Positions 6,743 to 25,686 of a stretch of 29,317 bases of DNA are shown here, one piece after another (the stretch's first letter is position 1; each line of letters opens with the position of its first letter). Origin of the DNA: a virus (Duplodnaviria; Caudoviricetes). A program made the position numbers and the translations under genes. The DNA is taken from positions 1 through 29,317 of the IMG/VR virus record IMGVR_UViG_3300030332_000794. One strand, given 5' to 3'. Below the pieces are notes generated by a model that had not been told where the DNA came from, ran no database searches, and saw nothing but the letters and a program-made list of their open reading frames with translations.

Positions 6743-6856
6743 CTAATTCAAGAGCTTAGTTAGTTTATGTATTTCGGTATTAAGTTTCTTTAACAGTTGT
6801 GATATCTCGTATATAATTTCTTTTAAAATAGGGTCGATATGTTTCTTCTTATTCAT
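6743..6856 (-). CDS. Small hypothetical protein (37 aa, amphipathic helix)
   Basis: Not in ORF track: MNKKKHIDPILKEIIYEISQLLKKLNTEIHKLTKLLN; G-rich RBS, overlaps upstream stop, fills the gap before the terminator. Confidence 0.6.
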   Translation of the reverse strand: MNKKKHIDPILKEIIYEISQLLKKLNTEIHKLTKLLN

Positions 6857-7076
6857 CTATCCCACCCCCTATTTCAAAATAGATTTTATACACTCCCAAT
6901 TTTATGCATGATCTATAGCTAGATAGGTGTAGTTCAAACCATAATATTGACGATAGTATATCAACAGCATATACTAGTTGTACAATAAATGCTTTGATTA
7001 TGTAGTGTTCGATTTTTATTAGAGGCTCTAAGTTGAAATCCCATTTTTTCTCTATATCAACTTTCTTCACTGCCAT
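6849..7076 (-). CDS. Hypothetical protein (75 aa)
   Basis: Likely start MAVKK at 7076 with AAGGAG RBS (ORF track starts at 7109). Confidence 0.7.
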   Translation of the reverse strand: MAVKKVDIEKKWDFNLEPLIKIEHYIIKAFIVQLVYAVDILSSILWFELHLSSYRSCIKLGVYKIYFEIGGGIDE

Positions 7077-7551
7077 TTTTTCTCCTTTCTTGTTCCATAT
7101 AGAGTCCATACATTGCTATTAGTATGGCATCTGAGTTGTACAGTGTGACTCTTTTATCTGTGTAATGTGAGGCCATCTCCTTTAATGACCGTTTACGTTC
7201 TTGTTTTTCTTTAGGTAGTTTTATATTTAGTTTATCCTGCCAGTATTTCATCCACTTCTGAGGACTCATTAATACTGTGCGTACTTTATATGCTGCTAGT
7301 ATTCCCTGCCATTGTCCATAGTTCTGTCCAAACTTAAATAATGAAGACCTTCCATCATGAGGCATTGCGTGTACTAGCTCTAAGTAAGCTACCGCTCTCA
7401 TATTTTTATCTACATATTCAGAATTTTTGGATGTTCTGATAATGTCTGCCATTCCTTCTGTTGTCTTTGGACACTTTACAATAGTGTGAAGTCCATTACG
7501 CCAAATAGCCACTCCACCACTCTTACCCGGGTCTATTCCTATTATTGTCAT
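7057..7551 (-). CDS. RuvC-like Holliday junction resolvase
   Basis: N-terminal IIGIDPGKSGGVA, YLE, FKFGQNYG, PQKW and DAILIA are typical phage RuvC-fold motifs. Confidence 0.85.
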   Translation of the reverse strand: MTIIGIDPGKSGGVAIWRNGLHTIVKCPKTTEGMADIIRTSKNSEYVDKNMRAVAYLELVHAMPHDGRSSLFKFGQNYGQWQGILAAYKVRTVLMSPQKWMKYWQDKLNIKLPKEKQERKRSLKEMASHYTDKRVTLYNSDAILIAMYGLYMEQERRKNGSEES

Positions 7552-8870
7552 TTTACATCATCCGTTTCTGCCATATCTGAGTTCATATAGAATTTGCATC
7601 TGCCACCATTAAAGCCTATCATGTGAGTGCCAATTTTACCATACCTACTCTTAGATACTATTATTTCGCTTTTATATGGGGAGTATCTTTCACTGTCGAA
7701 GTTATGACCATAGAATACAAACATTGCAGATTCAGCTGTTTGTTCTATTACACCAGATTCAGCATAATCGCTCATTCTGGGCCTTGGGTCTAACCTCCTT
7801 TCAATTTCCCTATTCAGTTGCGAAACTAATATAGCACTGCAGTCTTCTTGTTTGCATATCCACTTATATTCCTGCATTATTTTCTCTATCTCGAACCTTC
7901 TGCCTTCTCTCACTCCATTGACATCAATCAGTTGGATATAATCATCTATAATAACATCGGGTTTGTATCTTGATATCTCTCTTAGACATTCTGACAGCCC
8001 TCTAATGTTGTCATACATCATAAAGCTGCCATAATCTTTCTTTATTTTATTAGATGTGGATTCAAACTCTTTCTTGTTAGTCTCTGATAGGTCATTTCGT
8101 CTTATATTACCGTATTCTAAGCTACTACTTTCCATTACTACCATCTTCTTCAACATTTCTGTGTTGCTCATCTCTCGATTAAATAACATTACTCTGTATC
8201 CTTGCTTAACTAACCCCTTTACCATATTGATTACTAGAGTAGTTTTGCCATGTCCCGGCCTGCCTCCTAATACAGTTATTTCCTTTCTTGTCATTCCACC
8301 AGCAAACATATCAAGATGTGCTAAATTAAATGGGATAAGATTAGAGTCTTCTTTTACTACAGATTTCATCTCTTCCACTAAGTCTTCTATATCTTTTATC
8401 TTAGATGGTTGTATCTGTCTCAGTTCATTTATGAGTTTACTGTGTTCTTCTAGTATGTTCCCCACTTTCGTATAGTCTTCATAACTTGCATTAACAAGGT
8501 TGTGAGCTGATTTAGCAGTCTCTCTTTGTATGTATCTTTCCCAAACAATTCTTGCATATTCTTCTACATTTGCGGTTGACGGTATAGACTCTACTAATCC
8601 AGTAATATAGTATGCCATGCTTTCACCTTTGACATCTTTTACTTTATCATTTAGAGTTATGAAGTCTATTGTTATTTGGTTTTTGTATAGTTCCTTTACA
8701 GCTTGCCATATTATTTTATTATCATCTTTATAAAATGCATCATCTTCCCTTACCCAAGCCATTCCTATCTCATGCTCTCTTGCTCCACCATTTATCATAC
8801 ATCCTAATAAAGCTTGTTCAGCTTCATCTGAATGTGGGAGTAGTTTTATTTCTCCGTTTGTATTTTCCAT
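7548..8870 (-). CDS. dnaB: DnaB-like replicative helicase
   Basis: LPHSDEAEQALLG N-domain, Walker A GGRPGHGKT, IIDDYIQL, SQLNR, ESGVIEQTA, KSRYG. Confidence 0.95.
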   Translation of the reverse strand: MENTNGEIKLLPHSDEAEQALLGCMINGGAREHEIGMAWVREDDAFYKDDNKIIWQAVKELYKNQITIDFITLNDKVKDVKGESMAYYITGLVESIPSTANVEEYARIVWERYIQRETAKSAHNLVNASYEDYTKVGNILEEHSKLINELRQIQPSKIKDIEDLVEEMKSVVKEDSNLIPFNLAHLDMFAGGMTRKEITVLGGRPGHGKTTLVINMVKGLVKQGYRVMLFNREMSNTEMLKKMVVMESSSLEYGNIRRNDLSETNKKEFESTSNKIKKDYGSFMMYDNIRGLSECLREISRYKPDVIIDDYIQLIDVNGVREGRRFEIEKIMQEYKWICKQEDCSAILVSQLNREIERRLDPRPRMSDYAESGVIEQTAESAMFVFYGHNFDSERYSPYKSEIIVSKSRYGKIGTHMIGFNGGRCKFYMNSDMAETDDVK

Positions 8871-8871
8871 T

Positions 8872-9711
8872 TTATTCCTCCTGAAATAATTGAAATTGTG
8901 TATTTGGTTCGTAGTTCATTATAACATATTCTTTTCTTTCTATGTCTCTTGATTTCTTTGTTGCCCCACTATATCTCAGTTTTATTGTTTTTAAGTTATA
9001 TTTAGAATACAACTCTTTTACTTCATCTCTATGATCGTAACTAATCATAAAGTTTGCTCCACCGCTGTCGATCTTATCAACGTATTCTTTTAGTCTAATA
9101 TGATCTTCAGCGTCAAAGTTATTCATATAGTAGTTGCCTTTATCTGTAGCTATGAAATAAGGTGGGTCTAAGTACCAAAAGTCTCCTTCTTTTGGGTTGT
9201 ATTTATCTACTAATGTAGCGAAATCGAGGTTCTCTATTGTAGTTCCGCCTATATGCATCTTTGAATATTCAAGTTCATCTCTCCAGTTCTTGTTCATATC
9301 CTTGTTCATTGAGAACGGTGTATGTACAAGTTTATTGAAACTATGTCTTATACAATAGAGGTACTTAGCTGCTTGTAAAGAGTCTGGAATTACTATATCC
9401 TTTTTCTCCTTAATACCCTCCCTGAAATCTAAGAATAATTTTCTCGATTTAGGAAGCCAATTTAGGTAATAGATAAGCATATCAATGTCTTCTATCACGG
9501 ACATATATAGGTTAACAATATTATTGTCAATATCATTAACTACATTCCAAGATACTTTAGTCTTCCTAAAGAACATTGATAGACCCCCAGCAAATATTTC
9601 AATATATCTTTCATGGTGGGGTATGAGCGGAACAAGTATTTTGCTCAGCTCATACTTTCCACCATAATAAGGTATCACTATAGGGCAATCATACCAATCA
9701 AGGCTAGGCAC
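8872..9711 (-). CDS. DNA adenine methyltransferase (Dam/D12 class), orphan
   Basis: PYYGGK, EIFAGG, NDID, YLDPPY motifs. Likely GTG start at 9711 overlapping the upstream stop (track starts at 9753). Confidence 0.9.
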   Translation of the reverse strand: MPSLDWYDCPIVIPYYGGKYELSKILVPLIPHHERYIEIFAGGLSMFFRKTKVSWNVVNDIDNNIVNLYMSVIEDIDMLIYYLNWLPKSRKLFLDFREGIKEKKDIVIPDSLQAAKYLYCIRHSFNKLVHTPFSMNKDMNKNWRDELEYSKMHIGGTTIENLDFATLVDKYNPKEGDFWYLDPPYFIATDKGNYYMNNFDAEDHIRLKEYVDKIDSGGANFMISYDHRDEVKELYSKYNLKTIKLRYSGATKKSRDIERKEYVIMNYEPNTQFQLFQEE

Positions 9712-10477
9712 TTGCCGCCCATCTACTAACTGCAGGATACAACTGATTTTCAATGATATGAGTAGCTTCAGTCTTCCTGTTCATGCTATGAGACAGCACG
9801 TTTGTACCTACGTTCAACAAATCCCAATATGTCTTTGGTTTATCAGCTATTAATCTGCCTGTTATGACTTCATTAGCCTGTATTGGGAACATCTTGATGA
9901 ACTTTATTATATGTTTCTCTTTCAAATCGGTGTCGAATAAGATAGGAAAATCATCTTTAAAGATCATCTTTGTTTTTTCCATAGTGTTATCTATTACAGA
10001 CTCTAGGTCATTCAGAGATATGTTATAGACGCTATGCTTGTTAGTATATTTACCAACAACTACACCTATGACTAATCCATTACTGCAAACTATTCTGAAA
10101 GCTCCAGACATAATATTTACTCCGACAGTTCCATTGTAGCTATTGTCAAATATAATCTCCGGTTCAATGTTTTCATTTTTGCCAAGATTAACTTTATGTT
10201 GTGGGAAGTGCCATTTAACACGAGTTCTTGCTCCATTGTTAAATGTGACAGCTTCTTTAACTTTCCCTTTATTCTTCTTAATAATGGGATCAGCATATTT
10301 CATAACTGTTTTATTATCAACAAGTTGGTACTCATCTGTCATACAGCTAAGAACCGCTCCGGTGTCTTCTCTGACTATGAATTTGTATCCAGAAGAATCT
10401 ATTTCTTTACCTTTTTCTGGAATCCCAATTGCTGGAACTTCTGTTACTGGGAACATTACTGATTGTAAATCACTCAT
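9704..10477 (-). CDS. DUF932/DUF945-family phage protein
   Basis: REDTGAVLS...YQLVDN and NSYNGT...GAFRIVCSNGL signatures; start MSDLQ with AAGGAGAG RBS. Confidence 0.8.
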   Translation of the reverse strand: MSDLQSVMFPVTEVPAIGIPEKGKEIDSSGYKFIVREDTGAVLSCMTDEYQLVDNKTVMKYADPIIKKNKGKVKEAVTFNNGARTRVKWHFPQHKVNLGKNENIEPEIIFDNSYNGTVGVNIMSGAFRIVCSNGLVIGVVVGKYTNKHSVYNISLNDLESVIDNTMEKTKMIFKDDFPILFDTDLKEKHIIKFIKMFPIQANEVITGRLIADKPKTYWDLLNVGTNVLSHSMNRKTEATHIIENQLYPAVSRWAASA

Positions 10478-10886
10478 TTTTCTCTCCTTGTTCATGATTT
10501 ATTACGGGAGGCGCAGTACCTAACATACGCCTTTCATTTTTTCTAATACTGTTTGCATTAGAATTTCTATTTTGTATTATTGATCTTAGATACGCAAATC
10601 CCTTTCCTTTTGCATAGTGTCCAGCTTGATAGTACTGCTCTATGCCCCATTGGACTGCTGTATCGTCTATGTCTCTTACGCCATATAGAAACAGAAAGTA
10701 TGTTCCACCATCTTCTGTATCTATGTTATTTACTATTAACTTTGCTATGTTTCTTATGAGTTTTACTGTTTTTTTGTTTCTTAGGCTTATTAGGTCTTTT
10801 ATTTCTTTAGATTTATTGTATTTTTTGAAATAAGAATATCCGCATGAAGGACACTTAAATGTCTGTGAGTCACTCGCTTTCTTCAT
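10470..10886 (-). CDS. Zn-knuckle protein with DnaD-like C-terminal motif (possible replication initiator/loader)
   Basis: CPSCG near the N-terminus; FAYLRSIIQN resembles the DnaD YxxxIxxN motif; lies upstream of dnaB. Function is inference. Confidence 0.5.
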   Translation of the reverse strand: MKKASDSQTFKCPSCGYSYFKKYNKSKEIKDLISLRNKKTVKLIRNIAKLIVNNIDTEDGGTYFLFLYGVRDIDDTAVQWGIEQYYQAGHYAKGKGFAYLRSIIQNRNSNANSIRKNERRMLGTAPPVINHEQGEKNE

Positions 10887-11097
10887 AGTCTTTCTGCATA
10901 TTGTCGTGTATTTTATTTAGATTAGTGAATACTGGATTATCTTTGTTGTCTCGTATATTCCTGTGAGCTTCTAAAAATCCTTCGGCAACTTCTAGTGAAG
11001 TTTTCCCAGTTAGCTTTGAAAGAAAACCAACTTCTTCAACTAGTTCATCTTTTTTATTATTCTCACATAGATATGATATGTATGCCATTTTTCCCAT
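10870..11097 (-). CDS. Hypothetical protein
   Basis: Start MGKMAY with AAGGAG RBS; coupled in operon. Confidence 0.75.
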   Translation of the reverse strand: MGKMAYISYLCENNKKDELVEEVGFLSKLTGKTSLEVAEGFLEAHRNIRDNKDNPVFTNLNKIHDNMQKDYEESE

Positions 11098-11111
11098 TAT
11101 ATTTCTCCTTT

Positions 11112-11342
11112 TTAGTATGTTTTTATCCAACCATCTTTTCCTTCACAGACTGGACATATTTTTTTAGGTTTACCATAAGTAACAAAATCTTTATAATATA
11201 ATATCTCTTTAGGATATCCTTTTTTTCTGTTGTTTCTTACAGTTTGAATTTCCCAGCAATCCTCACATTTATTACAATATGAGACTACCGAGTCTGCTTT
11301 TCTAGCATCAAATGATTTACTATCAGCAGTTTCTTTTTTCAT
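11112..11342 (-). CDS. Small Cys-rich (Zn-binding) hypothetical protein
   Basis: CNKCEDC and CPVC; ATGA overlap with upstream gene. Confidence 0.75.
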   Translation of the reverse strand: MKKETADSKSFDARKADSVVSYCNKCEDCWEIQTVRNNRKKGYPKEILYYKDFVTYGKPKKICPVCEGKDGWIKTY

Positions 11343-11737
11343 TCCTCTTCCATTGATTTATCATAAGCAATTATTTGAGCATTTGTGTCATGATATCTAT
11401 TTTCACTGCTGTCATTCTCATCGCCTGGATCATGTGGTGACACCCATTTTACATTATCTGGTGTAGTAACATCTTTCCCAACCACTGGTACATTAATATT
11501 GTAGTTGCTGGGATAATTATCCATATCCTCTAACATTTCTTTATTATTATATTCATCAGCAGTAGTTGGTTCACCATCAAGAGCTGCTCTTGCTACTCCT
11601 CTAAGATATACAGAATTTGCTTGATCTCCACATGATGCTATTTCACCTAATGCATGAAAATATCTATCCAATCTCTCCGACAGCCATCTTACATGACCAT
11701 CTATTTTTTCCAACTTGTCTTGTATTTGTTCTTTCAT
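11339..11737 (-). CDS. Hypothetical protein
   Basis: 132-aa ORF, AAGGAG RBS. Confidence 0.75.
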   Translation of the reverse strand: MKEQIQDKLEKIDGHVRWLSERLDRYFHALGEIASCGDQANSVYLRGVARAALDGEPTTADEYNNKEMLEDMDNYPSNYNINVPVVGKDVTTPDNVKWVSPHDPGDENDSSENRYHDTNAQIIAYDKSMEEE

Positions 11738-11747
11738 TTTATTCTCC

Positions 11748-12041
11748 TTATACTATTTTAGCTTCTGTTTGTGAGGCCCATCTGTGTTTACCTAGATAAA
11801 ATGCTTTATCTTTTTCTGATACATGACTAACTGATGTAACTAAAACTGTAGCAGATACATCACTTACATCTACCAGTACAGCTCTTGTCCCAGACTGTGT
11901 TTCCACTAGTTCCCCAATTCTTATGTCTTTTAAATATTTGCAACCTTTAGCAGGTTTCCAATCAGGCCCATTCTTCATAGCTGCCTTTGCTAGTTTATTA
12001 GCCTGATTGATTTTCCTTTTTAGAATATTGATTCTCTTCAA
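11748..12041 (-). CDS. Hypothetical protein
   Basis: 97-aa ORF, TTG start with GGAGAG RBS. Confidence 0.7.
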   Translation of the reverse strand: MKRINILKRKINQANKLAKAAMKNGPDWKPAKGCKYLKDIRIGELVETQSGTRAVLVDVSDVSATVLVTSVSHVSEKDKAFYLGKHRWASQTEAKIV

Positions 12042-12225
12042 GTTCTTTCTCTCCCTGTATTATGTCTTCTTTTATTTTAGTGAAATCAGTTATTATTTTA
12101 TGGAACATATTGCTGTTATCAAAATTACTAAAATGTTCACATGACTTTTTTGCATGAACAAGTGATATAACAACCCAATCTATTTCAGATTTTGTTAATT
12201 TTATTGTTGCTGATGATTCCATCAT
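11998..12225 (-). CDS. Hypothetical protein
   Basis: 75-aa ORF overlapping both neighbours in the operon. Confidence 0.7.
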   Translation of the reverse strand: MMESSATIKLTKSEIDWVVISLVHAKKSCEHFSNFDNSNMFHKIITDFTKIKEDIIQGEKELEENQYSKKENQSG

Positions 12226-12572
12226 AATACTACTTCTTTCGAAACATATGGAGTACGAAAGAAATCAACCTTTTTCATAATATCTTTCGGTATATACCAT
12301 TGCTTGCCTTGATTACCGTGATTCTGTAAGTTTCCGTTATTTTGAGCAGCTCTTATACCTATTGAAAGAGTAGTTCTTTTAACAGGATCAATAAATATAA
12401 ACTTTTTGATCTTATTATCTTTAGCATATCCCATCAGTTTATTATCAAATGACAGGAATCTACCATTCCATAGGACTGCTGTACGGAATGAAAATTCTCT
12501 TATTATTTTATCATCTATATGTTTGCCAAGAAATGTCTTACGGTCATTGACTATTGTATATATAGCTTTCAT
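12222..12572 (-). CDS. Hypothetical basic protein
   Basis: 116-aa ORF, AAGGAGAG RBS; first gene after the 12605-12675 RNA element. Confidence 0.75.
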   Translation of the reverse strand: MKAIYTIVNDRKTFLGKHIDDKIIREFSFRTAVLWNGRFLSFDNKLMGYAKDNKIKKFIFIDPVKRTTLSIGIRAAQNNGNLQNHGNQGKQWYIPKDIMKKVDFFRTPYVSKEVVL

Positions 12573-12604
12573 TTTTCTCTCCTTATAAAACTATAATTGG
12601 GGGA

Positions 12605-12675
12605 AAGGGCGACTATCTCAATACCAAGGAGAGATAAGGGGGAACATGATACAATATTTGAGTTCAGCCGCCCTT
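12605..12675 (-). ncRNA. Putative three-way-junction RNA/leader with anti-SD tract
   Basis: Closing stem AAGGGCGGCT/AGTCGCCCTT, inner GAAC/GTTC and ATCTC/GAGAT hairpins; contains TCCCCCTTATCTCTCCTT; starts 6-7 nt after a -10 box. Confidence 0.6.
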
Positions 12676-12681
12676 ATCTCA

Positions 12682-12710
12682 AAGTTACATTCGTTGTGTA
12701 TTACAATCAA
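12682..12710 (-). promoter_or_regulatory. Sigma70-like promoter
   Basis: TTGATT-N17-TAACTT on the minus strand. Confidence 0.65.
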
Positions 12711-12739
12711 AAGTAATTCCTTAGTATTTTTCAGATACT

Positions 12740-13378
12740 CTAGAAGGGTACGTCTTCTTCAAGTTCGTCTTCTGATAATACATCGCCATCTGGCCATTGT
12801 ATTACGTTGTTGACTTTGAAGGTTGCACGCTTCTCTTGTTGATCTGAAGGCAAGTGCTTTGTTTCAGTAGTGACAAATTCATGTCTCTTGACTGTAATCA
12901 AAACAGGTTGACCGCATACATCTTCTTCTTCAAGAAGAATGAGCTGTTTAACCTTCTTACCTTCTACTTCCTCTTCTTTACATGACATTCCGAGGTTATC
13001 AAGAAGTTCAAAGTATCTGCGATTCTTACTACTTGAGCTTGTATCAGTAAAGATAAAGAACCCATTGTCATAAAAGGTTCTATCTTTTAAGTGAGCACAT
13101 CCTATCGTGGACTGTTCATCACTTCCATTACTAGCTGGGATTCTTTCACCTGTCTGTGGATTCTTCTTGTATTCGTATCCATCCATTTCCCATTCAAGTT
13201 GTGTAAGTTTAGCAACTTCTGGAGCTACTTTGTAGGTCATGTTGACTACAATAGCTTCACCAGCTCTTGTGTTAACTTCCTTTGTGGAAAGCGATGTTAT
13301 ATGAGCTGGGTAAGTCCCCTCTTCAATAGGTCTCCATTGAGAGTTGGGATCGAATGTTGCATCGAGTGTTTTAGCCAT
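12740..13378 (-). CDS. Single-stranded DNA-binding protein (DUF669/gp2.5-like)
   Basis: PIEEGTYPAHI N-terminus, acidic tail ending EEDVPF, located in the recombination cluster. Confidence 0.7.
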   Translation of the reverse strand: MAKTLDATFDPNSQWRPIEEGTYPAHITSLSTKEVNTRAGEAIVVNMTYKVAPEVAKLTQLEWEMDGYEYKKNPQTGERIPASNGSDEQSTIGCAHLKDRTFYDNGFFIFTDTSSSSKNRRYFELLDNLGMSCKEEEVEGKKVKQLILLEEEDVCGQPVLITVKRHEFVTTETKHLPSDQQEKRATFKVNNVIQWPDGDVLSEDELEEDVPF

Positions 13379-13393
13379 TATGTCTCCTTATTG

Positions 13394-13669
13394 TTATTTA
13401 TTATTGGTTTTAGGTGTGATCGTGTACTTTTCAAGCAACTTCTGGTATTCAGCTAAGAAATTTTCCATATTCTTGCTTGGTTTTGTGCCTTTACCACCTC
13501 TCATATAAAGGCATGGTTGTACCATTTTGTTATCAGCAGTTTTTATAAACCTCTTTGTAGGCTTTCTGGTACTTACAGTATCACTGTTTTTCAACTCAGC
13601 GATTGCTTTATCAGATAAAACACCTGCTTCTTTTAGTTCCTGAACATTATCGGATTTTATTTTACCCAT
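13394..13669 (-). CDS. Hypothetical basic protein
   Basis: 91-aa ORF, AAGGAGAG RBS. Confidence 0.75.
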   Translation of the reverse strand: MGKIKSDNVQELKEAGVLSDKAIAELKNSDTVSTRKPTKRFIKTADNKMVQPCLYMRGGKGTKPSKNMENFLAEYQKLLEKYTITPKTNNK

Positions 13670-13931
13670 TGTTCTCTCCTTTTATTGTGGTTCTTCCAAA
13701 TGTCTCTGGTTGAGGCAGTGGAAGTTCTTCCATTGTGAAAGTGTGAAATGATGGATTTACAGTAAGAGCTGTATTCTCTTCTGTCTGAAATACCATCATT
13801 GGTTTTCCATTCAAGAGTTTAGTGCCTTTATACACTACTCTCCTAAATTCTTTTCCGTCATTGGTTCCTATAGTATAACATTCTTCTTCTTTAAGAAGTC
13901 CGTCATCATAGCTTCTATTCAGATTTTTCAT
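13662..13931 (-). CDS. Hypothetical protein
   Basis: 89-aa ORF overlapping neighbours. Confidence 0.75.
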   Translation of the reverse strand: MKNLNRSYDDGLLKEEECYTIGTNDGKEFRRVVYKGTKLLNGKPMMVFQTEENTALTVNPSFHTFTMEELPLPQPETFGRTTIKGENNG

Positions 13932-14547
13932 TTTTATTTTCCAGTTCCCTTTCTAGTTTGGCAAATGATGCATTATAGTTAGCAGTATTAATGCTTTGGT
14001 CTTTGATTAACTCATGCACTTGAGAAAGTCGGTCTTCACTTATTTCACCAGCAAGAACAAGTATATCATTCTTCTGTTCATCAGACAGCTCCATATCATC
14101 TACTTGGTTGCGGTACACATCATCTGCAATATTGAGATAAAAGTTGAAAGCCTTCTTTATACAATCCGTATTAGACGCTTTAATATCGTTTCCTATATCA
14201 ACAAACTCATTTGTACCACGTTTCTTCTGTATCCTATGTGCTGCTACCATATCGCCTTCACGCCAGATACCTTCATCATACCATTTCAGTCGACCATGTA
14301 TTACATAAGCCTCACTTCCTAAGTTCTCGGTTTTCTCTATTGTCCATGACCAACCGGGATATTCTTTATCAACAATTTCTCTCATATAAGAGAACTCTAC
14401 ATAGTCCATACCCATTTTCTTTTTCACAAATGGTTTGGGTGTTGACATATCAGACACTTTCTTATGTTTAAGCGTTATAGCTTCTCTTATTATATCTGTT
14501 GCAGCTAACATTTCTTTGTCAGCTATGACTACTGATTTATCGTTCAT
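13915..14547 (-). CDS. Sak/Rad52-like single-strand annealing protein
   Basis: TPKPFVKKKMGMDYV...YPGWSW...DIKASNTDCIKKAF..L.IADDVY matches the Rad52/Sak pattern; adjacent to an exonuclease. Confidence 0.8.
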   Translation of the reverse strand: MNDKSVVIADKEMLAATDIIREAITLKHKKVSDMSTPKPFVKKKMGMDYVEFSYMREIVDKEYPGWSWTIEKTENLGSEAYVIHGRLKWYDEGIWREGDMVAAHRIQKKRGTNEFVDIGNDIKASNTDCIKKAFNFYLNIADDVYRNQVDDMELSDEQKNDILVLAGEISEDRLSQVHELIKDQSINTANYNASFAKLERELENKNEKSE

Positions 14548-14680
14548 TATCTCTCCTTATTTTATGTTTTATTTTATCTACCATTGCAAATACAAATAAT
14601 ATCAATCCTAATATCATCATTGCATCTATTAATATATACATTAATGGCAATAGGATATTCGTTGCTAACCATTCCCCCAT
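14537..14680 (-). CDS. Small membrane protein (47 aa)
   Basis: Not in ORF track: MGEWLATNILLPLMYILIDAMMILGLILFVFAMVDKIKHKIRRDNER; AAGGA RBS; hydrophobic stretch plus basic tail. Confidence 0.65.
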   Translation of the reverse strand: MGEWLATNILLPLMYILIDAMMILGLILFVFAMVDKIKHKIRRDNER

Positions 14681-14699
14681 AATATTATTCCTTTATTTA

Positions 14700-15440
14700 T
14701 TATGTTTTAGATATTGTACTTGGGCAGATACTGCTATATGAACAATATCCACACTCCCAATTTTCAAATGGAACTCCTTCTATTATGCCCGGCATGAGTT
14801 CTTCTTCAAAATATTTCTTACCAGTATCTTCTAACCATTGATTAAGCTCTACCCAGTATTCTAAAGCAGTATCCATCCATCCATTCATTACAAGTTTTTC
14901 TCTCATCATACTTGTGTTCTTGTTATAGAATACTAAATACATCATCATATGGTCAGGATCAAATCTTTCTTTGATTGCCATTCCATATGTACTTAACTGC
15001 ATCTTATACATTCTGGTAGAATTTTCTTTCCTATTCTTCTTTATACCAAATATAGTAGACCACTTAAAAGCAGCTGCTGTCTTTAAATCATATAAATTAA
15101 AGGTGCTTTTATCATCTTCATTAATTATTTCACCATAATCAAATGTTCCTGTTACATTTAATTCTGGTATTATTATATTTTCTTCAATCCATATTAGTTT
15201 TTCGGGATTAGCATCTTGGTACTTAGTTATAGCTTCTTCTACATCACTGTGTACTACAGTGCCTAACCTTAAAACTTTGAGCGACTTATTATCTAAGTCA
15301 TCTTTTGGAAAATCGAAATAAGAATACAGTTGTTTTCTGTAACAACTACCTGCTGATGATGCGTGAAATACATTTTGATCACGCTCTCTCCTCAAATTTA
15401 TTTCTTTAAGATAATCACAATAGATAGATTCTATGTTCAT
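14700..15440 (-). CDS. Cas4-like PD-(D/E)xK exonuclease
   Basis: HASSAGSCYRK, GTVVH, GTFD...YDLKT, QLSTY, C-terminal CGYC-x5-C (1+3 Cys Fe-S pattern). Confidence 0.85.
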   Translation of the reverse strand: MNIESIYCDYLKEINLRRERDQNVFHASSAGSCYRKQLYSYFDFPKDDLDNKSLKVLRLGTVVHSDVEEAITKYQDANPEKLIWIEENIIIPELNVTGTFDYGEIINEDDKSTFNLYDLKTAAAFKWSTIFGIKKNRKENSTRMYKMQLSTYGMAIKERFDPDHMMMYLVFYNKNTSMMREKLVMNGWMDTALEYWVELNQWLEDTGKKYFEEELMPGIIEGVPFENWECGYCSYSSICPSTISKT

Positions 15441-15464
15441 TTTATCCCCCTTTTAAATTGTCTA

Positions 15465-15493
15465 AATTTAACAATATCTGAGTTTACGATCAA
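15465..15493 (-). promoter_or_regulatory. Sigma70-like promoter for the recombination operon
   Basis: TTGATC-N17-TAAATT with extended -10 TG; shares TTGATYGTAA with the 12710 promoter. Confidence 0.65.
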
Positions 15494-15500
15494 TAACTAA

Positions 15501-15593
15501 TAGTTTGGGGGCGAGGCTGCATCCACCTCAGCCTATTCATTTGAGGCCTAGTTAACCTCTATTCTTTCTAAATGCATTTTTGCCCCCAAACCA
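15501..15593 (-). ncRNA. Structured RNA domain A (three-way junction)
   Basis: Closing stem GTTTGGGGGC/GCCCCCAAAC (10 bp perfect, 12 with extension); inner CATTT/AAATG plus GAGGT/GCCTC arm, and an AGGCTG/CAGCCT hairpin. Confidence 0.55.
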
Positions 15594-15598
15594 ATTTA

Positions 15599-15709
15599 GC
15601 AAAGCAGTAAGAACCATGCTACGGATATAAGCCCCATGTCTTTATGTTCTCTTGTACTTCAGTTTTCAACATGGAAGGCACGTGTACTTTATTAAGCCAT
15701 CTGCTTTGC
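15599..15709 (-). ncRNA. Structured RNA domain B (multi-branch)
   Basis: Closing stem GCAAAGCAG/CTGCTTTGC; inner CTTC/GAAG and GAGAAC/GTTCTT plus CATG/CATG arms. Confidence 0.5.
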
Positions 15710-15715
15710 AAATAA

Positions 15716-15795
15716 TAGGCTGTGGATAGTTACAACGCTCATTATAAAATCTCAGGCCTGAGACTTATGAACATGCCCGGTGCCACCACAGCCTA
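15716..15795 (-). ncRNA. Structured RNA domain C (long irregular hairpin)
   Basis: TAGGCTGTGG/CCACAGCCTA, TGTTCAT/ATGAGCG and AAGTCTCA/TGAGATTT helices; G-U pairs favour the minus strand. Confidence 0.55.
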
Positions 15796-15798
15796 AGT

Positions 15799-16344
15799 TC
15801 AACAGATTTCGAAACCACCACTCTTGTCACAGAATTGTGCGAAATCTCTTACATTCTTTACACTAAATGGGTATTCTGCAATCCATGGTTTTGTTTCGCC
15901 TTTTCCATCACATCCATTGCATTTACCTTTAACGAACTCATCATTGCGTATACCTTTCCCATCACAGAGATTACATTTTTCAGAATCTAGATCATCTAGT
16001 GTTTTTTCTCTATCAGATGCATATCTTCTGATATGACCTTCTTTGTCTAACTTTCTGATTCTTGCTGCCATTCTCTTTGCTTTTGTTTTAGATATCCTAT
16101 GCCCATTATTCATTTCACCTTCTGTCATATCTTTATCAGTTAGTATATCATCACACATAAAGGAAACATAGTTCCATAGAGGTCTCCACCACCATACATT
16201 ATTTCTAAAATATGCTCCGGGAGTGTTCATCTGCCAAGCAAAATATGCTTTAGACTCTTCTTCATCATATTTACCCTGACCCCAGTTTGGTTGATCTGGA
16301 ATCACATCTGTTTCAGGCTTTAAGCCATATACATCGAACCCCAT
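15799..16344 (-). CDS. Hypothetical protein with DnaJ-type CxxCxGxG zinc finger
   Basis: CNLCDGKG...CNGCDGKG; YFRNNVWWWRPLW motif; AAGGAG RBS. Confidence 0.8.
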   Translation of the reverse strand: MGFDVYGLKPETDVIPDQPNWGQGKYDEEESKAYFAWQMNTPGAYFRNNVWWWRPLWNYVSFMCDDILTDKDMTEGEMNNGHRISKTKAKRMAARIRKLDKEGHIRRYASDREKTLDDLDSEKCNLCDGKGIRNDEFVKGKCNGCDGKGETKPWIAEYPFSVKNVRDFAQFCDKSGGFEIC

Positions 16345-16547
16345 TAGTTTTTCTCCTTATTTGTTCTATTTTTCTTCGTTTTTTGGTCTATATGTTTATA
16401 ATATCGAGCCATCCGAAGCGGCACGACCTTCTCTTCGTTGCATTTACCACAACATCTTCCTTTAGGGTTAACTGGCCAAGGATTATGACCACCTCCCCAA
16501 CCATCTAAGTCAGATATTATCTTATTGCTACATATTATACATATCAT
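16344..16547 (-). CDS. Small Zn-finger protein
   Basis: CIIC...GHNPWP...RCCGKC. Confidence 0.75.
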   Translation of the reverse strand: MICIICSNKIISDLDGWGGGHNPWPVNPKGRCCGKCNEEKVVPLRMARYYKHIDQKTKKNRTNKEKN

Positions 16548-16744
16548 TTTCTCTCCTCCTCTTCATATATATAGTCTAAGAGGTCTGAATACTCTTCGAC
16601 TAGTTTGATTATTTTGTTTTCTATTCTGTTTAATCTGATTACTATGCTTATAAAGAAACACAACATAAAGAATACATAAGCTTCCCATGCTAACATGAAT
16701 GGAGCTGTATTTTCTAACATAGACTCCCAATAATGTTTAAACAT
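16544..16744 (-). CDS. Small membrane protein
   Basis: One hydrophobic helix followed by an acidic tail; AAGGAG RBS. Confidence 0.7.
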   Translation of the reverse strand: MFKHYWESMLENTAPFMLAWEAYVFFMLCFFISIVIRLNRIENKIIKLVEEYSDLLDYIYEEEERK

Positions 16745-16746
16745 AT

Positions 16747-16983
16747 TTATTTCTCCTTAGTATCTGCGATTGCATTTGCTATATTATTTAAAGCGTCTGC
16801 TATATTATTTAATGAATAGTTCACCTCAAATATTGCATCTACAACGCCTTTATCATAGTCATTTATGAAACTGTGTCGTATTGTTTGTGTTAGATTGCCA
16901 ATTTGCCTTCCAACTGAACTGTAATCAGATGATTTACTCAAGCTTTCAGCTATATTGTTTATTGCCTGAAATGTTTTATCCAT
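16747..16983 (-). CDS. Hypothetical helical protein
   Basis: 78 aa, heptad-like LNNIADALNNIANAI; AAGGA RBS. Confidence 0.7.
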   Translation of the reverse strand: MDKTFQAINNIAESLSKSSDYSSVGRQIGNLTQTIRHSFINDYDKGVVDAIFEVNYSLNNIADALNNIANAIADTKEK

Positions 16984-16986
16984 TAT

Positions 16987-17274
16987 TTATCCTTTCTCCA
17001 ATATATCTGTTATTTTGTCATATGTTTCTTTACCAGACGATGATAATCTATAATAGTCCCATCCAAGCATTTTTATCAATTTAACGAGTTCAACCTTACT
17101 ATTCTTTATCAGCTTTACTCCAGACGGGTTAGCCATAGAATATGGAGGCCCATAATCTTGTGTACGATCATGTTCATCTTCATGATTCAAGCATTCATCA
17201 CACATACGTTCATCGACATCGCCTGTTTGCTCAGTATATTCATTATTACATTCACAACATGTCCATTTTACCAT
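16987..17274 (-). CDS. Hypothetical Zn-binding protein
   Basis: CCEC...CDEC; AGGAG RBS. Confidence 0.75.
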   Translation of the reverse strand: MVKWTCCECNNEYTEQTGDVDERMCDECLNHEDEHDRTQDYGPPYSMANPSGVKLIKNSKVELVKLIKMLGWDYYRLSSSGKETYDKITDILEKG

Positions 17275-17295
17275 TTTCGACTCCTATAGTTATAA

Positions 17296-17326
17296 GAAAT
17301 AGGCCGGAGTGTATCCAGCCTATTCC
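17296..17326 (-). terminator. Intergenic hairpin (weak terminator/attenuator or processing site)
   Basis: GGAATAGGCTGGA-tacac-TCCGGCCTATTTC (13 bp, 2 G-U) followed by TTAT; the U-tract is imperfect. Confidence 0.55.
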
Positions 17327-17336
17327 TCGGTTACTA

Positions 17337-18125
17337 TTAATATAGTTTAATAGGATTACGGTTGTTCCAGTTATACACATCCTCTATCATGCGTAAATAG
17401 TCATTCACTTTAGTGCAATAGACGAATTTCATTGGCACTTGTTCTACTTTCTGCATCATTCTGTCATGTTCAAACTCTGGATGTGTCATTAAGTCCATAT
17501 AGACTCTCAGGAATGTTCTATGACGGTATATTCTGTCATTAAACTGTTTAAATTCCTGTATTTTACCCAGCAAATCGTGTACAATCTCCAATCCTTGAGT
17601 TATTTTGAACTCACCTCTGCGAAACTCTTCAAGCATTGATTTATCATTCCTACCTGCTAACACATTGATGAGTGTTGAGATAGGATACTGATATTGCTTT
17701 TTAAAGCCATGCAGTATGGAATAGTCCTGTATTCCTCTTTCACAATAGTGATGCAGTGAGTCATACAATGACCATTTATCCTGAACTGAGTTAACCATGC
17801 CTATATCATCAATCTCCATATCAGAGAATCTATAATATATTGGCAGTCCCAGTTCCATACAGGTTATAAACCTGTGTTGGCCTTCTATTACAATCAGGGT
17901 CTTACCATTTTCAGAGACTAATACTTTAATCTCATTCTCATTAGTAAGGTCTTTGCGCTCAATGACTTCTTTCATCCTTGAGATTTTCCCCGGTTTAATA
18001 AGTCTATTGCTTTCAATAAGCAAGAACTTATCATAGTTATCTGTTTTGAACACAGGAACCATTATTACATCATCTCCCTCCGTGAGAGATTTTTGTTTGC
18101 GGTTCATCTTAAGTTCTTTAATCAT
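17337..18125 (-). CDS. ParB/Srx-like N-terminal domain protein
   Basis: NR...IVIEGQHR motif; likely start MIKELK at 18125 with AAGGAG RBS (track starts at 18221). Confidence 0.75.
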   Translation of the reverse strand: MIKELKMNRKQKSLTEGDDVIMVPVFKTDNYDKFLLIESNRLIKPGKISRMKEVIERKDLTNENEIKVLVSENGKTLIVIEGQHRFITCMELGLPIYYRFSDMEIDDIGMVNSVQDKWSLYDSLHHYCERGIQDYSILHGFKKQYQYPISTLINVLAGRNDKSMLEEFRRGEFKITQGLEIVHDLLGKIQEFKQFNDRIYRHRTFLRVYMDLMTHPEFEHDRMMQKVEQVPMKFVYCTKVNDYLRMIEDVYNWNNRNPIKLY

Positions 18126-18144
18126 AACTTGCTCCTTAGTATGT

Positions 18145-18318
18145 TTATGAGTATACTCTTTTGTTTTTAAGAATATAGAATTGTATAGCCAGTGGGGCTT
18201 TATACTTCTTCTTCTTACCATTTAAGAATATATAACCTCGTTTTCGTGATTTACTAACTTGTCTCGGTGTGCAACCAAGCTCCCTTGCTAGTTCTTTATT
18301 AGTTTTTTTATTTAACAT
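18145..18318 (-). CDS. Small HTH DNA-binding protein
   Basis: NKELARELGCTPRQVSKSRKRG helix-turn-helix pattern; start MLNKK with AAGGAG RBS. Confidence 0.65.
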   Translation of the reverse strand: MLNKKTNKELARELGCTPRQVSKSRKRGYIFLNGKKKKYKAPLAIQFYILKNKRVYS

Positions 18319-18595
18319 TATTGTCTCCTTCACTATTTGTTAAATCATATGCAAACTGCCATCCACAGTCATCATCATACCATGATATTTCATCAATTAC
18401 TGTATCGCAGTGTATTTGTATGTAATCAAAATCATTACTTTCTATGAAGTCCCAGTACCCTATTCTTAGATACCTAACATCATCGAGGCTGGTTTTAAAA
18501 TGGATATCATCCTTGTTATAACCTTTCATGCCTAATAATAATACTATTTTGTTTTCTATACCACTTTTAGGTGGGTATTGTTCTGAGTATGTCAT
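18308..18595 (-). CDS. Hypothetical acidic protein
   Basis: Start MTYSEQ with AAGGAG RBS. Confidence 0.75.
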   Translation of the reverse strand: MTYSEQYPPKSGIENKIVLLLGMKGYNKDDIHFKTSLDDVRYLRIGYWDFIESNDFDYIQIHCDTVIDEISWYDDDCGWQFAYDLTNSEGDNNVK

Positions 18596-18596
18596 A

Positions 18597-18719
18597 TTAT
18601 TTCTCCTTTCTGCGATTTGCGAATACATCTTTTAGTATAAATGATATTGCTACAGCAAATGTGGCGTATAATACTATTATAACACAAGCTCCTAGAAATT
18701 CTGTAGTTGTTATAGACAT
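18597..18719 (-). CDS. Small membrane protein (40 aa)
   Basis: Not in ORF track: MSITTTEFLGACVIIVLYATFAVAISFILKDVFANRRKEK; GGAGG RBS, TGATG coupling. Confidence 0.7.
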   Translation of the reverse strand: MSITTTEFLGACVIIVLYATFAVAISFILKDVFANRRKEK

Positions 18720-19240
18720 CACTCCTCCCCTCTGTAACCTATACAAGAAATAATATTTTGTTTAGTTTCTTTCTTGCACTCTTCATGCTCACATGGCACT
18801 ATAAACTGTCCATCTTCGTTAGCATCTACATCCCAACCATTACATTTATATTTAAATTCAACTGATCCACCTTCATACTCTACATCCAGTAGTTCATCAC
18901 TTTTCAGTCTAATTAAACAGTATAATTTCTTGTTAGACTTATATCTTCCTACATGGACTACTGCATCATATTTCTTATCATCTGGAGTAACTGTAAAACA
19001 TTCTATTCTATCACCATATTTAACTTCAGGCATTATACCATCTACAAATGATACTATATCAAAGCCTATCATCATCTCAAGTTCTCCATCAAAGTATATA
19101 GGGAAGTGATCTTCATTATTATTCACAGGCTTACCTGCTAACCTTTGAGCTTGTGTAGTCCTACTGAGGTATTCCTCTTCACTGTCAAATGCACCACCCA
19201 TGAATGATGGCTCTTGTCCGCAAAATATTGGTTTATCCAT
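18719..19240 (-). CDS. Hypothetical acidic protein
   Basis: 173-aa ORF, TAATG coupling, GGAG RBS. Confidence 0.75.
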   Translation of the reverse strand: MDKPIFCGQEPSFMGGAFDSEEEYLSRTTQAQRLAGKPVNNNEDHFPIYFDGELEMMIGFDIVSFVDGIMPEVKYGDRIECFTVTPDDKKYDAVVHVGRYKSNKKLYCLIRLKSDELLDVEYEGGSVEFKYKCNGWDVDANEDGQFIVPCEHEECKKETKQNIISCIGYRGEE

Positions 19241-19686
19241 TATACTACTCCATTTCTTAGTTCGTCTGTTAAGATCATGTATTCATTTTTAACAAGCTGG
19301 TTGTCTGATTTAGATGATATTTGAGCTGCGTGGCTTCTTTCATCTGACTCATAATGCTCAGGCACCTCCATTGCTAGTGGAGGGTCTTCACCTTTAAGCC
19401 AATACAATGTTTTAATCACTGTAATATATATTCTTTCATGTCTATCACCACCAAGCCACCTCATTGAGGCTATATTCCACTTTAATGACTCAATAAGATT
19501 ATCTACAGCACTCACAGTTTTAGCAAACTCATCAGTATTATGCATATACTCTATCTGTACCTCTAAGTCATCTATGCGGGCCTCCATATGAAACACCGCT
19601 GTCTCTAAGTCACCATATTGACTGAGTATCCTACTAACAACTCTAGCTTTATATTCTTTGAAGTTATATTCTTTCTCTTCACTCAT
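19240..19686 (-). CDS. Hypothetical protein
   Basis: 148-aa ORF, GAGG RBS. Confidence 0.75.
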   Translation of the reverse strand: MSEEKEYNFKEYKARVVSRILSQYGDLETAVFHMEARIDDLEVQIEYMHNTDEFAKTVSAVDNLIESLKWNIASMRWLGGDRHERIYITVIKTLYWLKGEDPPLAMEVPEHYESDERSHAAQISSKSDNQLVKNEYMILTDELRNGVV

Positions 19687-19699
19687 AGTTATACCTCGA

Positions 19700-20026
19700 T
19701 TAGTTAGGTGTTATTATATCCATGTCTTTGAAGTCTGGTGGTGTCGTCATATCATCATCGTCATCATTATCACTACTATCTGATAAGTAATCATTAGCTA
19801 ACATAACAGACTGTATCAGTTCTTTAGGTTTAATACCTATCCTTGTCGCAACAAGAGCTGACATTGTTGTAGCATTACTTTGAAGATTATCTAACTCTTC
19901 ATCACTGGCTATTTCACAACAGCCTGTATCTCTTATTCTGCCATGTAGCTTCGCAAGCATTGCTACTATTGTATTCACCGCTATCATTATAATCACCCGT
20001 TCACTTTTATTTAGTTTACGTTTCAT
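19700..20026 (-). CDS. Hypothetical protein with acidic tail
   Basis: 108-aa ORF, AAGGAG RBS, poly-Asp C-terminal region. Confidence 0.75.
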   Translation of the reverse strand: MKRKLNKSERVIIMIAVNTIVAMLAKLHGRIRDTGCCEIASDEELDNLQSNATTMSALVATRIGIKPKELIQSVMLANDYLSDSSDNDDDDDMTTPPDFKDMDIITPN

Positions 20027-20066
20027 GTGTGTTTCTCCTTTTATGGTTATTATGGTTCAAGTATGA

Positions 20067-20136
20067 GAGGGCAGCCTTTTATCACATGAGAAAGGAGCTG
20101 TGTTAGCACTTGCGGAGTACTATTGAGACTGCCCCC
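20067..20136 (-). ncRNA. Putative three-way-junction RNA with anti-SD loop
   Basis: Closing stem GGGGGCAGTCT/AGGCTGCCCTC (11 bp, 2 G-U), TAGTACT/AGTGCTA hairpin, and a CACA/TGTG hairpin with loop GCTCCTTTCTCA. Confidence 0.6.
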
Positions 20137-20142
20137 GAATTA

Positions 20143-20415
20143 TTAAATACCGTATGTATGCTGAAGTGTTATTGACTCCATATGCACATCATATCTTCTG
20201 TAATTGAAATGTATATCGGGATGACCTTTATGTAAAATAGGTCTTTCACCATGAAATGATTCATAGTTATCAACATAAAATGCTTTAGCTACACCATTCT
20301 CCATCTCACCTATTCTAGTACAATTGAAACTGTGCAGTAGTTTACCTCTTCCATTAAATCTAGCAGTCCGTTCATATAACTCTACCAATATAGCAGGATA
20401 AGTTTGTGTAGCCAT
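20143..20415 (-). CDS. Hypothetical early protein
   Basis: 90-aa ORF, AAGGAG RBS. Confidence 0.75.
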   Translation of the reverse strand: MATQTYPAILVELYERTARFNGRGKLLHSFNCTRIGEMENGVAKAFYVDNYESFHGERPILHKGHPDIHFNYRRYDVHMESITLQHTYGI

Positions 20416-20450
20416 TAGTTACTCCTTTTAACTATTTAAATCTTTTAGAA

Positions 20451-20528
20451 GAGTAAGCGGCTGCTGGTATAGCTGTGTGTAGTGTGACATGACGTTCACT
20501 TTATAATGCAACCAACAACCACTTACCC
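20451..20528 (-). ncRNA. Structured 5' leader / sRNA
   Basis: 18-bp stem GGGTAAGTGGTTGTTGGT/ACCAGCAGCCGCTTACTC with 4 G-U pairs valid only on the minus strand; inner GTGA/TCAC hairpin. Confidence 0.55.
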
Positions 20529-20535
20529 ATTGTAT

Positions 20536-20565
20536 AAGTTAATGCCCAAGTCGGGTGTGTATCTA
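20536..20565 (-). promoter_or_regulatory. Possible sigma70-like promoter with AT-rich upstream tract
   Basis: TAGATA-N18-TAACTT; the -10 is identical to that of the 12710 promoter and lies 7 nt before the stem at 20528. Confidence 0.4.
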
Positions 20566-20614
20566 TATGTAATAGTAGTATAAATATGTAAGTATATATA
20601 TATAGTAATAAAGG

Positions 20615-20652
20615 AAAAAAGCGAGAAAGAGGGCCCGAAGGCCCTCGATCTC
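20615..20652 (-). terminator. Rho-independent terminator after the first leftward gene
   Basis: GAGGGCC-TTCG-GGCCCTC (cUUCGg tetraloop) followed by TTTCTCGCTTTTTT. Confidence 0.85.
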
Positions 20653-20658
20653 TGAAGG

Positions 20659-20892
20659 TTACATGCCCTCTTCGGTTGCCAACTGATCCATCTGAGTGAC
20701 CAGCTCGTCATCTTCAAGGGAATCGACTGTGGAAGGGGTTGCCAGGTACTGAAACCCACTGCCTGCGTGCTTGACCAAATGGTATGCCTTACCCTCGTGA
20801 TCTATCGTGCCATCACTTACTTTGGCTTCGATGGGTACGATCTTCTCCTGATCGTCTGTCTTTACTGGTACTGTTACGTTGATTACTCTCAT
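20659..20892 (-). CDS. Small acidic protein, first gene of the leftward arm
   Basis: 77-aa ORF, TAAGGAG RBS, has its own terminator. Confidence 0.8.
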   Translation of the reverse strand: MRVINVTVPVKTDDQEKIVPIEAKVSDGTIDHEGKAYHLVKHAGSGFQYLATPSTVDSLEDDELVTQMDQLATEEGM

Positions 20893-20919
20893 AACCTACT
20901 CCTTATTTTATGGTTAACT

Positions 20920-25242: not shown

Positions 25243-25367
25243 TGCCAGCAGGTAAAGGAACATACGGTTCGACCCGAGGAAGACCGCCAAAGAAAGGGAA
25301 ATCAAATGCCAAAGTACGGAAAAAGAAGCAGAGAAAGACTAAAAGGCGTAAACGCAAAGCTAGTTAA
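25242..25367 (+). CDS. Very basic AT-hook-like peptide (41 aa)
   Basis: Not in ORF track: MPAGKGTYGSTRGRPPKKGKSNAKVRKKKQRKTKRRKRKAS; strong AAGGAGG RBS; RGRP motif. Confidence 0.7.
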   Translation: MPAGKGTYGSTRGRPPKKGKSNAKVRKKKQRKTKRRKRKAS

Positions 25368-25686
25368 TGTCTTAAACGAACTCATTAAGATCATGGACGT
25401 TACTATTATTGAAGGTCTGCGATCAGAGGAGCGTCAGGCAGAGCTTCTTAAAAAAGGTGCGACTAAGGTTAAATATAGCAAACATATGGAAGGAAAAGCG
25501 GTTGATGTTGCTCCGTATCCTGTTGATTGGGATGATCGTGAAAGGTTTCATTATATGGGCGGTATGCTACGTGGTATAGGCCACGAAATGGGAGTAAAAA
25601 TCCGATGGGGCGGCGACTGGGATTCTGATGGCGAAATAAAAGATAACAATTTTGATGACTTAGTTCATGTGGAGATTAGAGACTAA
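25306..25686 (+). CDS. M15-family (L-Ala-D-Glu) peptidase endolysin
   Basis: EGLRS..RQ, SKH...AVD, RWGGDW, DLVHVE zinc-peptidase motifs. Confidence 0.9.
   Translation: MPKYGKRSRERLKGVNAKLVNVLNELIKIMDVTIIEGLRSEERQAELLKKGATKVKYSKHMEGKAVDVAPYPVDWDDRERFHYMGGMLRGIGHEMGVKIRWGGDWDSDGEIKDNNFDDLVHVEIRD

Follow-up and report, generated by a model that had tools for sequence, protein, structure and literature searches.

A predicted closed-stem RNA element with exposed loop words on the early strand of a phage contig, and its possible action on host mRNAs

Phages related to the one studied here hold closed-stem elements of ~70 nt in which the stems vary, the loop words are fixed and the words occur in different combinations. 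The copy in the window (the whole stretch of 29,317 nucleotides that was analysed), termed element A, is likely, as judged from its predicted fold, to be a structured RNA in which a C/U-rich, anti-SD-like loop is exposed. The reading that we favour, and hold at a little short of even, is that element A is a small RNA derived from the early transcript, which would pair with a few host mRNAs at purine-rich start regions and lower their translation.

The window is a 29.3-kb phage contig with genes for terminase, a P22-like portal, DnaB, a Dam-type methylase, a Holliday junction resolvase and a ParB-like protein. Minus-strand genes span about 6850 to 20900, and because of their content the minus strand was taken to be the early strand. 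The close relatives are metagenomic contigs, several of them marked Tara; a search of phage collections gave matches below 25% identity or none, and no close isolate. In the host search, TerS, the 212-aa gene and the integrase of L331 had no relative among the genome contigs, and a 38-nt piece of the tRNA-Met of L096 matched in 7 scattered genomes. This tRNA-Met(CAT) lies at 4071-4144, in the early region of that one relative. In the window, a large plus-strand ORF (24-2969) carries a DxDGD motif (GDHDGD), presumably the catalytic motif of two-barrel RNA polymerases; it gave no sequence match in Pfam, PHROG or PDB.

Element A begins 6 nt past the stop of the 90-aa gene (20143-20415), and its stem ends 27 nt ahead of the SD of the next gene, which codes for 108 aa (19700-20026) (Table 1). 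The minus strand is predicted to fold at -25.5 kcal/mol, and 0 of 200 shuffles were as stable; the plus strand of the site has a z of -1.16. The 70 nt, 11-bp closing stem and two hairpins described in the initial annotation were recovered, on the minus strand: the closing stem contains two G-U pairs and encloses a 7-bp hairpin and a 4-bp hairpin with the loop GCUCCUUUCUCA. Orthologs were found in five records. L001, L405 and L444 are identical over the 70 nt, and L002 and L390 share one variant (z -3.06), in which P1 is kept through a G-C to G-U change, a 12th pair is gained, P2 is unchanged, and 5 nt and the 4-bp hairpin are gone. As the 4-bp hairpin is absent from this variant, the three-way shape is not essential. 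Thus, what all orthologs retain is the closing stem and the loop words, but not the three-way shape; the three-way RNA of the annotation stands as a fold predicted in the window and falls as a conserved trait. A consensus scan for intrinsic terminators found no such site at or after element A, nor on the minus strand downstream of it (11500-20066).

Table 1. Predicted RNA elements and associated features, with positions in the window
Feature	Position	Strand	Basis
Element B, behind the 212-aa gene	12605..12680	minus	two covarying helices with common bases
Element A, predicted closed-stem RNA of ~70 nt	20067..20136	minus	fold z -3.74; orthologs
P1 5' strand, pairs with 20067-20077	20126..20136	minus	pair probabilities 0.88-1.0 (three pairs printed)
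P1 3' strand	20067..20077	minus	predicted fold and pair probabilities
P2 hairpin showing word M2 ACUCCGCA (20111-20118)	20104..20122	minus	M2 invariant in orthologs
P3 (4 bp, dispensable), loop word M3 GCUCCUUUCUCA at 20087-20098	20083..20102	minus	loop predicted unpaired, at least 0.9
24-nt stretch matching the L299 element, 20/24 bases	20074..20097	minus	sequence match
SD of downstream gene (start 20026), 7-bp complement of M3	20034..20041	minus	no covariation in relatives
Element C, second closed-stem RNA candidate, CA-rich loop	20451..20528	minus	z -4.79
Conserved motif, likely early promoter that would drive C and A	20537..20551	minus	61/61 distinct occurrences on early strand
Late-gene carriers of the M2 complement	L032, L050, L055, L068, L070, L086, L135, L136, L156, L160, L172		

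The wider set was obtained by scanning 80 of 461 TerS loci and 80 of the 82 loci of the 212-aa gene for stems and words. Its members lie between genes on the early strand, measure about 60-100 nt and have closing stems of 10-17 bp, and three words recur in them: M1, CACAACUACAA; M2, ACUCCGCA, which occupies hairpin loops in the related phages; and the looser M3, with a CUCC or CCUUC core. With coding matches included, the M2-type word was counted 55 times on the early strand vs 3 on the other, and the M1-type word 44 vs 10 times. Most elements combine M1 and M2; M1 with M3 is seen in L023 and L029, M3 alone in L037 and L068, all three words in L078, and M2 with M3 in element A. Three relatives (L034, L037, L068) have two elements each, with different word sets. 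The closing stem of the M1-M2 elements is 98.7% paired among 25 sequences, and 5 of its 10 pairs carry two-sided changes. In 55 distinct elements the words are predicted to be unpaired (M1 at 0.70-0.99, M2 positions 3-8 at 0.79-0.93); the counts of word presence among these elements, 40 and 49, are circular, since the words served to pick them. In 100 sources, a covariance model of the M1-M2 family, R1, matched 31 times below E 0.01, always on the early strand; many of these matches are its own training set.

The substitutions within the words were also compared. All nine in M1 and 6 of the 11 in M2 are A>G or C>U, changes that keep wobble pairing. This bias weakly suggests pairing with a fixed partner; it is weak because the words are nearly all A and C, the members were picked by word-containing patterns, and the five other M2 substitutions are A>C. 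The M3 variants define no single fixed target. An exact complement of M2 occurs within the coding sequence of a late gene (homolog of window 25306-25686) in 11 relatives, the copy in the window being without it; codon coincidence is a possible cause. The early intergenic regions are also packed with other GC-rich closed-stem or multi-hairpin types (L003 4500-4950; L029, L032, L050, L068, L078), one of which, at 4827-4915 of L003, has a UCCUUUCU loop.

Like members of the set, element A lies on the early strand and has a GC-rich closing stem that encloses a hairpin with M2 in its loop. R1 gave no match to 20067-20136 up to E 10 with filters off. A second model, R2, built without the window and L002 as a sequence-only model from a poor 8-sequence M3-bearing alignment with no base pairs, likewise gave no match to it. 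Pairwise similarity between element A and the family members was below z 2 for most of 60 comparisons. The M2 8-mer has one copy in the window and is present somewhere in 23 of 100 shuffles of 29 kb. As both models missed the copy and similarity is weak, assignment of element A to the set rests on motifs, namely the M2 8-mer and a 24-nt match to the L299 element. Further pattern scans gave little: a stem-anchored pattern returned 10 matches in the viral scan, 2 of them orthologs and the others chance by their appearance, and what M2-M3 patterns added was limited to known elements and, in metagenomes, to 5 of 61 loci (L390, L405, L444, L431, L438). In bacterial genomes, 17 matches of the M1-M2 pattern passed the stem filter among 120 of about 160 estimated matches; they were taken as chance because all lie in GC-rich DNA without a common stem. 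No two-word target of M1-M2 was evident among the same 120 matches, with both strands scanned.

The L299 match comes from a second phage group. Scanning viral contigs with the M1-M2 pattern gave 63 stretches, and 32 of the 62 parsed matches passed the stem filter, some of them by chance. Among the pattern matches are three marine loci, L299, L308 and L331, with an integrase gene and a Cro-like HTH gene, which share no protein or DNA match with the window in the 6-7 kb compared; only one member of the integrase cluster is named, and it is an uncultured Mediterranean phage. Two strong predicted hairpins (z -4.3 to -5.6) stand right behind the HTH gene; M1 is in the loop of the first, M2 comes next, and an M3-like word is in the loop of the second. 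R1 scores these elements at E about 0.01, from the words rather than the stem. M3 was absent from the search pattern, and the L299 element nevertheless agrees with the 3' part of element A at 20 of 24 bases; of 6.68 million 24-mers, none but copies of these two elements reached that level. The sequences of L308 and L331 diverge in this stretch and keep only CUCCCUU. The same words in the same order in phages without a protein match point to a partner outside the phage. The second hairpin in L299 (2370-2420, minus strand) runs right up to the start codon of the following ORF, ahead of which no SD can be seen.

The position of the elements relative to genes bears on whether they act in cis or in trans. 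For 36 of 52 elements no SD-plus-start was found within 60 nt by a strict pattern that misses a few weak starts, and the neighbouring genes differ between relatives. M3-bearing elements follow an apparent homolog (by eye) of gene 18308-18595 in six relatives and precede the ParB-like gene in four; the element of the window is elsewhere. In a 6 by 6 swap matrix the loops showed no preference for their own RBS, such as would mark an int-alpA-like cis leader. The ParB-like RBS does not covary with M3. The lack of a near start in most elements, the differing neighbours and the absence of loop/RBS covariation argue for action in trans. No complementary site of at least 9 nt is common to the phages across 10 genomes or fragments, most of these records being partial, and none was found near the element in the three temperate loci (L299, L308, L331).

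The initial annotation had read element A as an anti-SD RNA that times phage translation through named RBSs. Its four complementary sites (18603-18611, 7082-7090, 20035-20041 and 18131-18137) are all present, each just before a start codon; those at 7082 and 18603 complement the loop over 9 nt, and that of the ParB-like gene over 7 nt. AGAAAGGAG occurs 4 times in the window vs 0.31 expected; one copy is element A itself and one is within the terminase gene. SD words are enriched in the window generally, AAGGAG occurring 35 times. When the 42 start regions of the window, a few of them placed approximately, were scored for pairing, the loop paired at -9.1 kcal/mol or better with 19 of them, and the two best were ones that the annotation had not named. 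The RBS matches are thus not special: any anti-SD loop yields such matches, and a match between an anti-SD loop and the phage's own RBSs is no evidence of targeting.

Fixed exposed words, variable scaffolds, indifference to neighbours and occurrence in two phage groups are consistent with a host-supplied partner, and CUCC in two of the words suggests pairing with purine-rich start regions of some host mRNAs. In the reading that we favour, element A would be transcribed as part of the early transcript and then cut out and released as a small RNA. Since no terminator comes after the element, this release would need processing; c4 RNA, for its part, is processed from an operon transcript. The predicted closed stem would display two C-rich loop words, M2 and M3, which may base-pair with the purine-rich start regions of a few host mRNAs, and translation of the paired mRNAs would be turned down.

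Other functions were weighed against this one. The strongest of them, an improbable one in our estimate, is that of a decoy or sponge: the exposed words would imitate what a host small RNA targets, or would bind a host RNA-binding protein, and so titrate the small RNA or the protein. The GcvB target consensus, which the prophage anti-sRNA AgvB carries according to the available part of PMC4104026, has 7 letters, and M1 opens with 6 of them. CA-rich unpaired runs recur in elements A and C and in relatives, and the same words are found in two phage groups. Element A, however, is without M1 and without an AgvB-like terminator scaffold, and the CUCC of M2 and M3 is more simply read as anti-SD. A nut- or put-like antitermination signal, with a cis effect on the polymerase that transcribes the long early operon, is quite unlikely. 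The early-strand place near a likely promoter would suit it, as would the site of the L299/L308/L331 element right behind a Cro-like HTH gene; nutR and putR of lambdoid phages have the same place, behind a Cro-like gene, and M3 may be likened, on our assumption, to boxA. Against this, no intrinsic-terminator-like site was found on the minus strand downstream of element A in 11500-20066, three relatives carry two elements with different word sets, and the position of the element varies. A processing or stability element, whose stem would be cut by a nuclease or would shield the ends of early mRNA segments, was rated slightly lower still. The intergenic site, the AU-rich flanks, the 10-17-bp stems and the many different closed-stem elements among the early genes are in its favour, yet it leaves unexplained why loop words stay fixed within variable stems and recur in the different scaffold of L299.

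Two readings built on the SD-like complementarity were given very little credence, and the same for both. In one, element A is a cis leader in which M3 pairs back to the SD of the next gene in a pseudoknot; the 7-bp complement 27 nt past the stem, kept in L002, is what recommends it. Against it, this RBS ranks only 16th-19th of the 42 start regions (-9.1), pairing with the own RBS in L078, L068, L023 and L029 is weak (-3.3 to -4.2, below the pairing of these loops with the RBS of the window), most elements have no near start, and there is no Rfam match. The other is the model of the initial annotation, in which an anti-SD RNA times phage translation via the named RBSs or, as a mimic of the 16S 3' end, blocks all host RBSs. 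It draws on the 9-nt and 7-nt complements and on the related M3 elements that adjoin the ParB-like gene in four relatives. No conserved phage target was found across the 10 genomes or fragments compared, the ParB-like RBS and M3 do not covary, and timing through the named RBSs is not supported, with two unnamed start regions that pair better and 19 of the 42 at -9.1 kcal/mol or better. A generic blocker would strike those regions as well as its own neighbour, and broad blocking of host RBSs would hit the phage's own strong SD sites too. Mimicry of the 16S 3' end is not borne out as the defining trait, for the two words with greater constancy, ACUCCGCA and CACAACUACAA, are not SD-generic, and there is variation in the third.

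Some known RNA classes were rejected. tRNA mimicry was considered for the 7-nt M2 loop; ARAGORN found 1 tRNA in 25 loci, unrelated to the elements. The base that follows an anticodon obeys a rule in tRNAs, and the base after the would-be anticodon here is a pyrimidine. For an HDV-like or hammerhead ribozyme there was no Rfam match, and the core motifs were not seen by eye. The element may also be likened, on our assumption, to a type II-C CRISPR repeat; Rfam gave no match of that kind, nor one in line with boxA. At the gathering threshold, Rfam 15 gave 0 matches in the window and 0 in 10 related loci; scans by E-value gave only weak unrelated matches or none.

Three described systems come near to the elements. 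The cuckoo sRNAs of alphaproteobacteria consist of 2-4 adjacent hairpins, each with CCUCCUCCC, in bacterial replicons; as far as the available part of PMC4615179 describes them, they share with the present set variable stems, a fixed anti-SD-like loop word, modularity and poor capture by covariance models. Unlike them, the present elements lie in phages and enclose up to three different words in a closing stem, with no Rfam match, and the cuckoo-defining word CCUCCUCCC is absent from element A. The c4 antisense RNA of phages P1 and P7 is, like the elements, a phage RNA with pairing sequences in loops, which block translation near an RBS; by the available text of PMC12197685 its target is the phage's own ant mRNA, whereas no own target was found for the present elements in the phage sequences compared and Rfam gave no C4 match. 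The prophage anti-sRNAs AgvB and AsxR (EcOnc) combine a variable 5' seed with a 3' region of about 42 nt that is conserved. They are alike in being short phage RNAs with exchangeable seeds on a scaffold and host RNAs as their aim, and M1 resembles the AgvB seed; in contrast to what the available part of PMC4104026 describes, the present seeds are constant, the stems vary and no terminator follows. In their proposed working the elements resemble the cuckoo sRNAs, c4 and AgvB, yet lack the trait by which each is defined in the available parts of these papers. No published description of the loop words was found, and three supplements of PMC10690425 held no match, although the family may be among the candidates of that paper.

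The initial annotation had also given element A the same architecture as 12605-12675 and placed both in one family of anti-SD RNAs. Local similarity between the two is at chance level (z 0.6, with 88 of 300 shuffles as high), and the predicted fold of 12605-12675 is not the three-way junction of element A. Element B trails the 212-aa gene in many relatives. It has two helices supported by 16 aligned copies: 12673-12680/12631-12638, with 8 pairs that are 100% paired and 3 two-sided changes, and 12666-12675/12605-12614, with 10 pairs that are 99.4% paired and 4 two-sided changes. As they use common bases, the helices would alternate or form a pseudoknot. The C/U-rich stretch of element B is the 3' strand of the first helix and forms no free loop. 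Placing elements A and B in one family is therefore not supported; of the proposed family, the recurrence of such exposed loops in relatives holds, and element B is no member. As a separate observation, element B appears as a conserved RNA of ~130 nt (12605-12735, minus strand), also with an upstream AU-rich hairpin and with no Rfam match. In L124 (8360-8470), L125-L128 and L132 a different conserved stem-closed element stands in for it behind the 212-aa gene.

Upstream of element A lies element C, with a predicted 18-bp closing stem, which is the first feature behind the likely early promoter; similar stems occur in L032, L068 and L078. The conserved motif ahead of it often stands directly before an RBS or before the first base of an element, as in L030, L034 and L032, and is likely to be an early promoter of non-standard type. 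In L444, which is without the 90-aa gene, element A is 17 nt behind element C, just downstream of the motif. The missing segment comprises the 90-aa gene and its RBS (20143-20436), with ATTTAA at both ends in the window, and by this comparison the 90-aa gene appears as a removable gene between two RNA elements. The consensus scan passed over one likely terminator, a GC-rich hairpin with a U-rich tail behind the 77-aa gene, at 20620-20650 of the minus strand.

According to the available part of PMC12197685, most phage-encoded small RNAs known so far come from a small number of phages that infect enteric and other model bacteria. The uncatalogued elements found here occur in dozens of contigs of marine phages and also in a second group of phages, and their words are concrete seeds for finding the host and the targets. 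A bolder extension, possible but on balance doubtful, starts from one uncultured host whose marine phages, lytic and temperate and not related to one another, would have mix-and-match small RNAs in common: three seed words would be swapped between scaffolds, placed in tandem behind an early promoter and directed at conserved RNAs of the host, the same ones in every case. The seeds would then show which host pathways each of these phages has to silence before any other. If the elements do act on host mRNAs, they would represent an RNA-level takeover tool of abundant ocean viruses.
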